Source: an uncultured Chloroflexia bacterium (GTDB lineage Bacteria > Chloroflexota > Limnocylindria > Limnocylindrales > CSP1-4). From it: DNA of 64,000 nucleotides. Below, in pieces: positions 23,483 to 29,979 of this stretch. The stretch is taken from NCBI GenBank assembly GCA_963770795.1, contig CAVYQR010000006.1:2329-66328 (forward strand), in the 5' to 3' direction. Position 1 is the first letter of the stretch. Every line of letters begins with the position of its first letter. The position numbers and the translations under genes are program-made. The notes below the pieces were generated by a model. The model saw only the letters and a program-made list of their open reading frames with translations, was not told the DNA's origin and searched no databases.

Positions 23483-25318
23483 GTGACCCTCGACCAGACC
23501 CAGGAATTCCTCGTCCAGCCGGTCGACGCGTCCTGGCTCCAGTGCAACATCGAGTGCCAGGAGGCGTGCCCTGTCGGCACGAACTGCCGGGGCTACCTCA
23601 ATCTGGCCGCCGAGGGGCGGTTCGAGGAGGGGTACATCCTCGCCCGCGAGCCGAACCCCGTCGCGGCGATGTGCTCGTACGTCTGCTCGGCCCCATGCGA
23701 GCGCGCGTGCCGGCGCGGCGACATCGACCGCCCGCTTGCGATCCGCGCCATGAAGCGGTTCCTCGTGGAGTGGCACGAGGCGTCGGGCATTCCGGACATC
23801 ATGCCCGCGATCACGCCGCGCGAGGAGCGTGTCGCCGTGGTGGGCGCCGGACCGGCCGGTCTCGCGGTGGCCCGGGAGCTCGCGAGCCGGGGCTACCAGG
23901 TCACGGTCTACGACAGCCTCCCGTACGGCGGCGGCACGATGCTGATCGGGGTGCCGGCCTTCCGGCTCCCACGCGAGGCGATCGAGATGGATGTCCGCCT
24001 TGTGGAGCGTCTGGGCGTCACGTTCGTGTTCGACACCACCATCGGCATCGACATCCCGTTCACGGACCTCCAGCGAGACTTCGACGCGATCGCGATCACG
24101 GCGGGCGCCATGAACCCGGTGTACCTGGACCTGCCCGGCGCGGACCTCGAGGGCGTGCAGTACGGCATCGACTTCATGAAGAAGGCCAACCTGGGCCAGG
24201 AGCTGGCGGTCGGCCGCAACGTGGTGGTCATCGGCGGCGGCTACACCGCGATGGACTGTTCCCGCACCAGCCTCCGCCACGGCGCCGAGAATGTCACCAT
24301 CGCCTACCGCCGCACGCGGTCGGAGCTGGTGGTGGACGAAGAGGAGCTGGGCGAGACCGAGCGCGAGGGCGTGACCCTGGACTTCCTGGTCAGCCCGATC
24401 GAGCTGGTCGGCGAGGACGGCAGGCTCACCGGCGTGCGGTTCATCCGCAACAGGCTGGGCGAGCCGGATGCCTCGGGTCGTCGCTCCCCGGTGCCGATCA
24501 AGGGCTCCGAGTTCGTCGTGCCGGCGGACACCGTCATCCCGGCCGTGTCCCAGGCTGCGGACCTCAGCTTCCTGCCGGTGGACTCGAGCTTCGAGGTCAA
24601 CCGCGGACGACTCAAGGTGGACCCGGCGACCTATGCCACCAACATCCGTGGCGTGTTCGCCTGCGGTGACTTCGTGACCGGCCCCACCACCCTGATCGAG
24701 TCGGCCGGGCATGGCAAGAAGGCCGCCTACGCCATCGACCGGTACCTGGACGGGCGGACGGACGTGACCGTCACCCCGAACGTGAAGATCACCAGCTCCT
24801 GGCGCCACGACATGCCCGAGCTGTACGACGTCCTGCCGCGGCAGCACATCCCGATGGTGGATCTGCCGGCCCGGATGCCGTCGGTGGACCCGGCGGTGAA
24901 CTTCAGCACCCCGGTGGAGCTGGGGTACGACGCGACCGCGGCGGTGGCCGAGTCCACGCGCTGCCTCATGTGCAACTACAACATCTGGTTCGACCCGTTC
25001 CGGTGCGTGCTCTGTGGCGCCTGCGCCGACGTGTGCCCGGAAGGCGTCATCCACATGGTGGACGTGAACCAGCTCAAGACAGAGGGGCTGCTGCCCGAGA
25101 TCGAGGAGGCCTATGGCTGGTCGCAGGGTGCGGCCATGATCCTCGACGAGGAGCGATGCATCCGCTGCGCGCTGTGCGTCAAGCGGTGCCCCTTCGACGC
25201 CATCACGATGGAGCGCTTCGAGCTCCAGGAGATCTCGAGCGACGGGCGGCTCTACAAGGAGTCGTATCGTGACGCCCAACTCGCCGGGACGGCCGGCGTG
25301 GCAGGAGGAGCCAGGTGA
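23483..25318 (+). CDS. GltD/NfnB-like FAD/NAD(P)H oxidoreductase with N-terminal FeS domain and C-terminal 2x[4Fe-4S] ferredoxin
   Basis: CQEACP...[27 protein letters not shown]...[22 protein letters not shown] and [12 protein letters not shown]. Confidence 0.92.
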
Positions 25319-26043
25319 GTTTCCTCGAGCGGGTCGACCAGTCCATCAGGCGCAGCCCCGTCTGGCGGTCGATCTTCCGCAACCCGTACCCCGACGACGA
25401 ACGGTCGCGGGCCTACGCGGTCATGAACAACGTGTTCCTGCACCTGCACCCCGTGCGGGTCAGGCAGCACGCGGTGAAGTTCGCCTACACCTTCTGCCTC
25501 GGTGGCCTGAGCTTCTTCCTGTTCCTCGTGCTGACCGTCACCGGCGTCTACCTGATGTTCTTCTACGTGCCTTCCGACACGCAGGCGTACTCGAACATCC
25601 TGGACATCCAGAGCAAGGTGGCGTTCGGCCTGCTGACCCGGAACATCCACCGGTGGGCCGCCCACCTCATGGTGTTCTTCGTCTTCCTGCACATGATGCG
25701 GGTCTTCTACCACGGCGCCTACAAGCCGCCGCGGGAGTTCAACTGGGTCGTCGGGGTGGTCCTGCTGTTCCTGACGATCATGCTCAGCTTCACCGGCTAC
25801 CTCCTGCCGTGGGACCAGATCGCGTACTGGGCCATCACCATCGGCACCAACATGGCCGGCTATGCGCCGCTGTTCAACACGCCGTCGAAGCTCCTCCTGC
25901 TCGGTGGCATCGAGGTGGGGCAGAACACCCTCCTGCGGTTCTACGTGCTTCACATCATGGTCTTTCCCCTGGTTGCCGCGATCTTCCTGGCCGTCCACTT
26001 CTGGCGGATCCGGAAGGACGGCGGCATCTCCGGGCCGCTGTGA
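25315..26043 (+). CDS. qcrB: Cytochrome b6-like subunit of a Rieske/cytochrome b complex
   Basis: FCLGG (heme ci-type Cys), [37 protein letters not shown]. Confidence 0.95.
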
Positions 26044-26058
26044 GCCGAGGCTGATCTG

Positions 26059-28499: not shown

Positions 28500-28503
28500 C
28501 GCC

Positions 28504-29979
28504 ATGGCCCAACCCGCCCCGCAGCCCGTGACCCGTCCTCGGCGCATCTTCTTCGGCCTGTTCGATGCGGACGGCTGGAGCTGGGCGATCGTCAAGGCGG
28601 GTTTCTGGTTCGTCACGATCATCACCCTCCTCGGATACATCCCTGACCGCGCCTACTACTTCACCGTGCAACGGACCGTCGACCTCTGGCCATTGGCGAT
28701 CTCGTTCGCCACGCAGCCAACGGCCGAGAACACGCTGCTGCGGTGGTCGCCGATCAACTTCTGCCCGCCCGAGAACGAGACGCTGCCGTGTCCGGCGCCG
28801 GTCGGCGCCACGCTCCCGTGGCACCCGGCCCCGCCCGACGTCCAGCTGCCGGCCGCTCGCGTAGACGGCGCCACGGCCGTCATCGGCCAGACCTATCTGT
28901 ACGCCGGCGGCAGCGACGGCACGGCGGCGGTCGCCACGACGTACGTCTCGCACGCCGTTGGGACCGGGAACCTGGACGCGTGGTCCGAGGGGCCGGCGCT
29001 GCCCCAGCCGCGCTCCGACGCCGCGACCGTCGTGGTCGGCAGCACGCTCTATCTCATCGGCGGATATGGGCCCGACGGCGCCCCCACCACCACCGCCTAC
29101 AGCATCACCGTGGGCAACGACGGGACGCTTGGCGAGTGGCAGCCCGTTGACACTCTGGCGCTGCCCGAGCCGCGCGCCGGCGGCAGCGCGGTGACGGTCG
29201 CGGACGGGATCGTGGTCATGGGCGGGACGGACGGGACGGCGCCCACGCGCAGCGTGTGGAAGAGCCAGCAGGACGCCTCGGGCGCGCTGGGGCCGTGGGT
29301 GGCCCAGCAGCCGCTGTACGAGGAGAACATGGACGGGGTCGCGATGCATGTCGGCGACATCGTCTTCCTCATCGGTGGCCGGAACCTCTCTGGCGAGCCG
29401 GTGACCACCGTGCAGCAGGGCCTGGTGGGCGGGGGCCCGAACGCCACCGCAGAGGACCCGAACGTCATCGATGTCTGGCGGGCAATCGAGCAGATCAACC
29501 TCCCGGTCCCGCGGACGGACATGTCAGGGTTCACCGCGAACGGCGGGATCTACGTCCAGGGCGGCGCCGACGCCTCCGGCCCCAAGGCAGAGACCTGGTG
29601 GGCCACCCCCGACGCCGGGGGCTTCATCGCGGAGTGGAACAACCTGCCTGAGCTCGACCTGGGCGAGGGCGTGGTGGGCTCCGGCGCGGTCACCTCTGGT
29701 TCGCACGCCTTCATCATGGGCGGGGAGACGGCCGGCGGCCCGACGGCCGGCATCGCGCGCGCCAACCTGGCCCCGCAGGAGCCGTTCTTCCAGCTGGGCG
29801 TGCTGGGTGCCACGGTCCCGGGCCTCAAGCTGGACGGCGAGGTCGGCCAGCAGATCGGCTATCTGAACGCCGCAGGGGTGGGCACGGTCAACTTCATCGC
29901 GCTGCTGCTCGTCGGCTGGGGGTTTGCGCACAAGGACCGGGTCCGCGAGATCATCGCGAAGCGGCGCCGCAAGAGCTGA
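28504..29979 (+). CDS. Kelch-repeat membrane protein
   Basis: Repeated LY.GG...W..LP.PR Kelch units between N- and C-terminal TM helices; starts 4 nt after the cyt c stop. Confidence 0.85.
   Translation: MAQPAPQPVTRPRRIFFGLFDADGWSWAIVKAGFWFVTIITLLGYIPDRAYYFTVQRTVDLWPLAISFATQPTAENTLLRWSPINFCPPENETLPCPAPVGATLPWHPAPPDVQLPAARVDGATAVIGQTYLYAGGSDGTAAVATTYVSHAVGTGNLDAWSEGPALPQPRSDAATVVVGSTLYLIGGYGPDGAPTTTAYSITVGNDGTLGEWQPVDTLALPEPRAGGSAVTVADGIVVMGGTDGTAPTRSVWKSQQDASGALGPWVAQQPLYEENMDGVAMHVGDIVFLIGGRNLSGEPVTTVQQGLVGGGPNATAEDPNVIDVWRAIEQINLPVPRTDMSGFTANGGIYVQGGADASGPKAETWWATPDAGGFIAEWNNLPELDLGEGVVGSGAVTSGSHAFIMGGETAGGPTAGIARANLAPQEPFFQLGVLGATVPGLKLDGEVGQQIGYLNAAGVGTVNFIALLLVGWGFAHKDRVREIIAKRRRKS

Follow-up and report, generated by a model that had tools for sequence, protein, structure and literature searches.

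A six-gene operon on the plus strand at positions 23483–29979 of a 64,000-nucleotide (nt) stretch of DNA from an uncultured Chloroflexia bacterium (GTDB lineage Limnocylindria; Limnocylindrales; CSP1-4; assembly GCA_963770795.1, contig CAVYQR010000006.1, positions 2,329 to 66,328; hereafter the window, ~70% G+C) places a gene for a flavoprotein with iron–sulfur (FeS) clusters directly ahead of the genes for a b6-type Rieske/cytochrome b complex. Judged from sequence, the operon is an aerobic variant of the Rieske/cytochrome b complexes linked to nicotinamide adenine dinucleotide (phosphate), NAD(P), that are associated with anammox bacteria. It combines this gene content with recognizable cofactor motifs, a gene order and gene coupling conserved across the class, and kinship to proteins of anammox lineages. 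The flavoprotein is probably a redox partner of the complex.

We refer to the genes as g1 to g6. Pfam assigns Fer4_20, Pyr_redox_2 and two Fer4 domains to g1 (23483–25318, 611 amino acids, aa), Cytochrome_B to g2 (25315–26043, 242 aa; 155 bits, 2e-45), Cytochrom_B_C to g3 (26059–26676, 205 aa; 3e-07), Rieske to g4 (26696–27370, 224 aa; 2e-08), Cytochrom_C and Cupredoxin_1 to g5 (27411–28499, 362 aa; 2e-09 and 8e-11), and Kelch repeats to g6 (28504–29979, 491 aa); all six lie on the plus strand. Intergenic gaps are 15, 19, 40, and 4 nt from g2/g3 through g5/g6, just as the original prediction, made from the sequence alone, had described (six co-oriented genes, gaps of at most about 40 nt). The overlap it had reported between oxidoreductase and cytochrome b can be read directly in the sequence, where the stop codon of g1 and the start codon of g2 share GTGA (4 nt). 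A promoter and terminator scan of the operon returned 0 promoter-like and 3 terminator-like sites, which is within the expectation from shuffled sequence.

The first gene encodes an NfnB/GltD-like FeS protein that binds flavin adenine dinucleotide (FAD) and NAD(P) and ends in a 2x[4Fe-4S] ferredoxin domain (Pfam E-values of 4e-27 for Pyr_redox_2, 1e-15 for Fer4_20, and 5e-14 for Fer4). Its GTG start agrees with the N-termini of orthologues. The predicted FAD and NADP-type sites are visible as GxGxxG and a GGGYTAMD...AYRR stretch, both conserved in alignments. Seven cysteines in the N-terminal domain and ten in the C-terminal part are invariant, the latter forming two CxxCxxCxxxCP motifs plus one extra CxxC (C494, C497); this set fits about four FeS clusters, the number first proposed. 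No signal or membrane segment was seen by eye in the translation, in keeping with the earlier statement that the protein has no signal peptide. Among solved structures, g1 matches 9bov/9bp5 (8e-107), 9n5u (3e-106), NfnB (4ylf_B, 7e-86; 5jca_L, 4e-78), and GltD (2vdc_G, 1e-64), and its residues 501–580 match FwdF (5t5i).

By sequence, g1 belongs to the same fold family as NfnB, the large subunit of Bfu-type NfnABC, and GltD, but differs in an extra conserved linker (H442–R464), the extra CxxC pair, and the 2x[4Fe-4S] domain, and in having no gene for a soluble partner such as NfnA or GltB beside it. We considered and rejected an assignment as GltD: scores against TIGR01317 (205 bits, cut-off 448) and TIGR01318 (269 bits, cut-off 483) are too low and the operon has no GltB; g1 also falls under the cut-offs of all other NCBIfam GltD and related models, including PRK12771 (414 bits, cut-off 516). 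An assignment as the NfnB of an NfnAB transhydrogenase was set aside as well, there being no gene of the NfnA (FAD/[2Fe-2S]) type among the five neighboring genes. The suggestion that bifurcation might be expected because NfnB homologues bifurcate is for the same reason not transferable; without an NfnA-type partner, any bifurcation would be of the ordinary kind at the quinol-oxidizing (Qo) site.

Orthologues of g1 vary in length. Those of one family (f4; loci L006–L008 and L125–L133; f, L, G, and C are our labels for families, loci, genomes, and contigs) have ~45 extra residues inserted after position 364 in the numbering of the window protein, and those of families f3 and f5 have C-terminal tails of 40–60 residues. 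Contigs of relatives from two RNA-library runs have one extra T right before the g1 stop codon, at 25311, which would alter the end of g1 and the overlap with g2 in those strains.

The cytochrome b encoded by g2 is of the split b6 type, aligning over residues 59–242 with spinach cytochrome b6 (6rqf_I, 1e-51). Cysteine C61 (TFCLGG) falls on Cys35 (FYCLGG) of the spinach protein, the ligand of heme ci, as expected from the predicted split cytochrome b with a heme ci cysteine. Both C61 and the four heme-ligand histidines (H112, H126, H213, and H228) are invariant in 29 sequences. Upstream of C61 lies a motif LHLHP (residues 43–47; 25441–25455), of which H43 and H45 are likewise invariant in 29 sequences. 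Comparison of 20 usable b6-type cytochromes b from Chloroflexota showed the motif in every one, with or without a flavoprotein; in the cytochrome b of genome G503 it is reduced to LQLHS.

The product of g3 resembles subunit IV, with three hydrophobic helices by eye. At the Qo site, KAPWY (residues 104–108; 26368–26382) replaces PEWY, so that the usual glutamate is absent, and K104–Y108 are invariant in 29 sequences. Residues 37–52 (26167–26214; RLLALVKQDAVVRVQK) form a cytoplasmic segment ahead of the first helix, with six positions invariant in 29 class members. In families f3 and f5 the subunit is 256–286 aa long owing to an inserted segment. The Rieske protein g4 contains RR in its N-terminus and the cluster boxes CPHLGC and CPCHGSRY, and carries next to the cluster the serine and tyrosine that are marks of high-potential Rieske centers. 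The solved structures that match it best, 9rk3 (4e-10) and 9rk4 (1e-09), are those of Kustd1480 and Kuste4569 from the anammox bacterium Kuenenia stuttgartiensis.

Two further proteins are encoded downstream. A membrane-anchored monoheme cytochrome c (CAQCH) is fused in g5 to a type-1 copper cupredoxin domain through a Ser/Ala/Pro-rich repeat linker with four SSAPGA copies (28200–28290). Counterparts of the cupredoxin part were matched in f1 and f2 loci and in L099, and the f3–f5 loci matched only the cytochrome c part. The last gene, g6, encodes a Kelch beta-propeller protein that has a hydrophobic segment at each end; Pfam Kelch families mostly score under their cut-offs, the best being Kelch_1 (29.6 bits, cut-off 20.1).

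The closest known counterparts are two Kuenenia complexes (Kuste4569–4574 and Kustd1480–1485), described as Rieske/cytochrome b complexes with a putative NAD(P) oxidoreductase subunit, a b6-like cytochrome b, heme cN, a five-helix subunit IV, and multiheme cytochromes (PMC12954380). The same source also reports co-migration of all complex subunits, Rieske potentials of +303 and +335 mV, AlphaFold3 models with four clusters between heme cN and FAD, and an extra heme b at the dimer axis that is predicted to be bound by His43 of Kuste4571 (PMC12954380). The LHLHP motif of g2 may correspond to this proposed ligand. The window operon shares with the Kuenenia complexes, as described there, the split b6-type cytochrome b with heme cN (ci), subunit IV, and Rieske protein, and also, from the same set of genes, an NfnB-like FAD/NAD(P) protein of the cytoplasm that has about four FeS clusters. 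The structures 9bp5 and 5t5i, used to place the clusters in Kuste4570 according to the same text (PMC12954380), are also the best structural matches of g1. In addition, g4 is nearest to both Kuenenia Rieske structures, and Brocadiaceae proteins are 41% identical to g1. The two systems differ on the p side, where the window has a monoheme cytochrome c, a cupredoxin domain, and a Kelch protein in place of the hexa- and octaheme cytochromes and HAO-like protein described for Kuenenia; in subunit IV, with three helices by eye rather than the five described; and in their hosts, the window belonging to an aerobe with an aa3 oxidase and no anammoxosome. This comparison draws on published descriptions and on structure matches.

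Cytochrome b6f and the b6c complexes of Firmicutes are similar to the window complex in the four histidines and heme ci cysteine of g2 and in having a subunit IV and a Rieske protein. However, the operon has no cytochrome f or small Pet subunits, adds the flavoprotein gene, has APWY where b6f and b6c have PEWY, and extends g2 at the N-terminus with the LHLHP segment. The literature searched, which left many subscription-journal papers outside, contained no description of such an operon in Chloroflexota or in an aerobe.

Conservation of gene order in relatives was one of the grounds on which the original prediction was, beforehand, to stand or fall, and the order is conserved. In 123 of 151 Limnocylindria genomes, the gene immediately upstream of g2, on its contig and strand, is a g1 orthologue (120 of 144 if the seven unpublished genomes in the sample are left out). 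Both genes were listed but apart in seven genomes, most of them cut by contig ends; for one of these (G016), locus L005 shows g2 starting right after g1 at the end of a contig. All 8 full loci, drawn from five families, show the order g1-g2-g3-g4-g5. A counterpart of g6 follows g5 only in L003, L010, and L011 (families f2 and f1), and not in five loci of families f3, f4, and f5. At 29 g1/g2 junctions, with start codons chosen by script, we counted 19 overlaps of 4 nt, one of 1 nt, six gaps of 0–3 nt, and three gaps of 15–21 nt. Conservation of this kind across a class suggests that the arrangement is more than chance.

Two genera of the class (labeled g4 and g5 in our sample and unrelated to the gene names) lack both g1 and g2 in 11 of 11 genomes. 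We considered this co-loss as evidence of coupling and rejected it: no clear cytochrome b was found in the five of these 11 genomes that were checked (best scores 24–36 bits), which amounts to loss of the whole operon.

Evidence on transcription comes from RNA-library contigs of close relatives (90–99% alike), which cover the operon and bridge g1/g2 in two runs (one study), g3/g4 in three runs (two studies), and g4/g5 in one run. Only a small share of sequence words (0.06–0.14) was present in these runs, and the contigs, being those of relatives, give no starts, ends, or strand. Separate transcription of the genes had been named as grounds for rejecting the prediction; the bridged junctions point the other way, but co-transcription is only weakly indicated, since a contig is no proof of a single transcript and such libraries may contain DNA.

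Among 401 genomes of the phylum (four unpublished ones were entered in the tallies only), a g2-type cytochrome b was found in 169 (E <= 1e-55) and a g1-like protein in 115 (E <= 1e-100), and at these thresholds adjacency outside Limnocylindria was seen only in G469. At that locus (L097, G469:C6), the g1-like and b6-type cytochrome b genes stand together; a response regulator comes next, and neither a subunit IV gene nor a Rieske gene follows. In G503, a more distant g1-like gene (33% identity) precedes a fused cytochrome b. A profile search of genome contigs with the g1 alignment listed 80 loci, all from Limnocylindria or unclassified Chloroflexota. The metagenome scan was seeded with a 6-row alignment, and its 80 loci are those nearest a Thermincola-type homologue. 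At these metagenome loci, which come from other lineages, flavoproteins with the full architecture have a cytochrome b gene just downstream in 20 of 28 cases, in contrast to 0 of 52 relatives lacking the C-terminal ferredoxin domain, for which a cytochrome b anywhere in the locus was counted.

The family to which g1 belongs is large, with 4227 representatives at E <= 1e-30 in a library of 50%-identity clusters, and close homologues are named Candidatus Limnocylindrales, Limnocylindria, or Chloroflexota. Clusters ~40–42% identical to g1 over the full length have members from Brocadiaceae, Candidatus Wunengus, Planctomycetota, Nitrospinota, and Thermincola, and the Brocadiaceae proteins are among its nearest named relatives beyond Chloroflexota; the 50%-identity cluster with Brocadiaceae, Candidatus Wunengus, and Planctomycetota members is 41% identical to g1 over residues 14–579. 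A tree of 51 proteins unites the Limnocylindria g1 proteins in one clade (Shimodaira–Hasegawa-like approximate likelihood-ratio test, SH-aLRT, 98). The Brocadiaceae group and the Thermincola/G503 group branch separately within an unresolved radiation, which excludes the host's own GltD-like paralogues and the 28–31% identical homologues of families f9 and f19; a homologue from G505 (33–35% identical) lies inside it on a long branch. Adjacency to cytochrome b occurs in at least three branches of this tree (Limnocylindria, G469, and G503).

The host, a soil bacterium, appears equipped for the aerobic life that was assumed for it at the outset. Its genome (3.19 Mb in 7 contigs, 90% complete) has a single COX1, which lies in the window within the sole heme-copper oxidase operon (56939–62787). 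On the minus strand are COX2 (60602–61555), COX1 (58966–60714), COX3 (58272–59132), and a gene whose 397-aa product ends in a cupredoxin domain (56939–58132); CtaG (61393–62787, + strand) and SCO1 (53892–54680, – strand) lie beside these genes. As COX2 has no cytochrome c domain, a copper protein may carry electrons from g5. The genome also encodes two complex I-type loci, PntB, and two full-length [NiFe]-hydrogenase large subunits; menB scores over its curated cut-off, which makes menaquinone likely, and RuBisCO was not found in the genome. From its genes, the host looks like an aerobic, menaquinone-using heterotroph or hydrogen oxidizer.

On this basis, we infer the docking of g1, the electron path, and its direction as follows. 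The six genes would form one operon for a menaquinol-oxidizing b6-type Rieske/cytochrome b complex. Oxidation of quinol at the Qo site would split its two electrons as in any Q cycle. On the p side, one electron would pass from the Rieske cluster to the monoheme cytochrome c of g5 with its fused blue-copper domain, and from there probably to the aa3-type oxidase, whose genes lie at a distance of 27 kb in the window. On the n side, g1 would dock on the face formed by cytochrome b and subunit IV and connect heme bH/ci to FAD and NADP(H) by way of two clusters in its N-terminal part and two in its C-terminal part. The low-potential electron could then either reduce quinone at the quinone-reducing (Qi) site or exit through g1 to NADP+. 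The drop from menaquinol to the high-potential acceptor would thus pay for NADPH, with no use of the proton gradient; the same energetic argument, in which the split at Qo drives NAD(P) reduction, has been made for Kuenenia (PMC12954380). If g1 is indeed a redox partner, we lean slightly towards net flow in the direction of NADP+. The reading as a whole, a menaquinol-oxidizing complex with docked g1 and Qo-site bifurcation to NADP+, is put forward tentatively, at a little short of even confidence.

Several observations weigh against it. Operons with g2–g5 and no g1 occur in families f25, f29, f10, f17, and f47, which have instead a lone g1 homologue (40–44% identical, same architecture) among unrelated genes. 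Loci L092–L096, L146, and L147 (families f25, f29, f17, and f10) are of this kind. In four near-complete genomes the lone homologue lies 145 kb to 3 Mb from the operon, and in the flavoprotein tree the G469 protein joins the homologues of f10, f25, and f29. Linkage of g1 to cytochrome b is therefore not obligatory. The cytochromes b of the g1-less operons of these five families form one clade with g2 (SH-aLRT 97) and are its closest relatives. At least nine further families have the complex with homologues that are only 28–35% identical, or none, and cytochrome b is missing from the vicinity of 8 of the 28 metagenome flavoprotein genes with the full architecture. The heme ci cysteine, LHxHP, and the Rieske Ser/Tyr pair are found in g1-less Chloroflexota complexes as well. 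In family f2, whose genomes are 1.0–1.4 Mb in size, the counterpart of g2 was the sole cytochrome b detected in each of 6 genomes and COX1 is present in 4 of 5, so the complex must also serve ordinary respiration. With PntB and two complex I-type loci in the host, an additional route to NADPH is not obviously needed, and a preference of g1 for NADP over NAD is presumed from a sequence motif. The proposal of a cytoplasmic module that exchanges electrons between NAD(P)H and the Qi/heme ci side accordingly fares unevenly: synteny and the aerobic host are in its favor and none of the grounds for rejection that were tried overturned it, but the module is not obligatorily linked to the complex and the hint from NfnB bifurcation does not carry over.

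To look for marks of docking, we compared the subunit IV N-terminal segment among loci, using a strict pattern drawn up after the data had been seen. The pattern was present in 29 of 29 Limnocylindria loci with g1 in cis and in 7 of 7 ‘trans’ loci, compared with 1 of 3 loci whose flavoprotein is a variant and 1 of 17 that lack a close flavoprotein; it was absent from all 17 metagenome cis loci, where a looser hydrophobic segment was seen by eye. Mapped onto the cytochrome b tree, these counts reduce to 1 to 3 independent contrasts (p = 1), so the segment is inseparable from shared ancestry as a docking mark and is kept as a lead only. The Rieske Ser/Tyr pair and the LHxHP histidines were dropped as marks of flavoprotein-bearing complexes, both occurring with and without g1. 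A structure prediction of two copies of g2, two of g3 (residues 1–180), and g1 residues 436–590, made with 29-row alignments and no cofactors, gave scores of 0.31 and 0.22 (mark, 0.32) for this partial g1, a result that weighs on neither side of the question of binding.

The same assembly could also run in reverse, with g1 as an NADPH dehydrogenase that passes electrons from FAD through its clusters to heme ci/bH and on to menaquinone at Qi. Such a route resembles the proposed feed of ferredoxin/FNR electrons into heme ci during cyclic flow in the chloroplast b6f complex. It would be strongly downhill, making special potentials unnecessary, and agrees with the retention of the heme ci cysteine in g2. 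In an aerobic heterotroph or hydrogen oxidizer in which RuBisCO was not found, disposal of reducing power may outweigh its production, and where the complex must act as a normal complex III, as in family f2, an added input fits better than a diverted output. On the other hand, a 611-aa protein with four clusters is elaborate for a job that single-subunit NDH-2 enzymes do alone. NADPH input would also waste ~250 mV in a host that has two complex I-type loci and PntB. The same argument from waste was used against NADPH input in Kuenenia (PMC12954380). On balance we regard NADPH input as unlikely, though it is the rival that survives best.

A broader version of the NADP+-reducing reading is doubtful in our view: in aerobic, menaquinone-using Limnocylindria, the complex would serve as principal complex III and at the same time transfer electrons from quinol to both NADP+ and cytochrome c, with lone homologues in sister Chloroflexota families docking in trans through the conserved N-terminal segment of subunit IV. 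The oversized fall in potential from menaquinol to a high-potential Rieske/copper/oxygen chain would raise the second electron, by way of heme b/ci and the g1 clusters, to NADP+. NADPH would then be obtained from donors at the quinol level, such as H2, and the proton gradient spared.

Alternatively, g1 may be a soluble NADPH-dependent FeS flavoprotein with no attachment to the complex, such as a reductase linked to ferredoxin or thiols, and be co-transcribed with it only because both are needed at the same time, e.g., for redox balance or cofactor supply. The lone homologues of the same architecture in five other families, the 8 of 28 metagenome loci, the size of the protein family, and the ancestry-bound subunit IV motif are all in accord with this. 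It is nevertheless improbable given that the homologous Kuenenia subunit is reported to co-migrate with its complex (PMC12954380). Against it also stand the stop/start overlap kept across the whole class, the clean association of cytochrome b with the ferredoxin domain (20 of 28 vs. 0 of 52), and adjacency in at least three branches of the flavoprotein tree.

That the cluster is a Geobacter-type ExtP/ExtQ module for selenite/tellurite or extracellular electron transfer is very hard to credit, since, although g2 scores 299 bits against the ExtP model (NF040969), barely over the cut-off of 290, g3 reaches only 51 bits against ExtQ (NF040970, cut-off 150), the operon has Rieske, monoheme cytochrome c, and cupredoxin genes and none of the multiheme, porin-like, and rhodanese genes of ext clusters, and the aa3 oxidase operon provides a likely sink.

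To our knowledge, Rieske/cytochrome b complexes that bear a flavoprotein have been discussed almost solely as an oddity of anammox bacteria, and we know of no measurement of the reaction they catalyze. The present results place this module class-wide in abundant aerobic bacteria of soil and freshwater, with a p side that is far simpler, having one heme and one copper center. A smaller complex from aerobes should be more tractable for expression, purification, and cryo-electron microscopy than the multiheme anammox assemblies, and the question of whether Qo-site bifurcation produces NAD(P)H becomes easier to test. If the direction towards NADP+ is correct, aerobes based on menaquinone would have a new means of saving energy that is otherwise lost in the Q cycle.

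The host has a second Rieske/cytochrome b locus elsewhere in its genome (C2:838566–843710), after genes for cytochrome c biogenesis. It encodes a multiheme cytochrome c, a short Rieske protein with the box CPCHDGRF (without Ser/Tyr), a fused cytochrome b of 363 aa, and another multiheme cytochrome c.

The genes that flank g1–g6 in the window are unrelated to them and lie on the opposite strand. Upstream of g1, a divergent frame (21335–23230, – strand) contains a tandem ADERG peptide repeat followed by PAAS repeats and has no Pfam match; it extends antisense into g1, and its predicted start is uncertain. Farther upstream, a gene at 13594–16506 (– strand) encodes a 970-aa protein with a MerR-type helix–turn–helix, three GAF domains, and a GGDEF domain.

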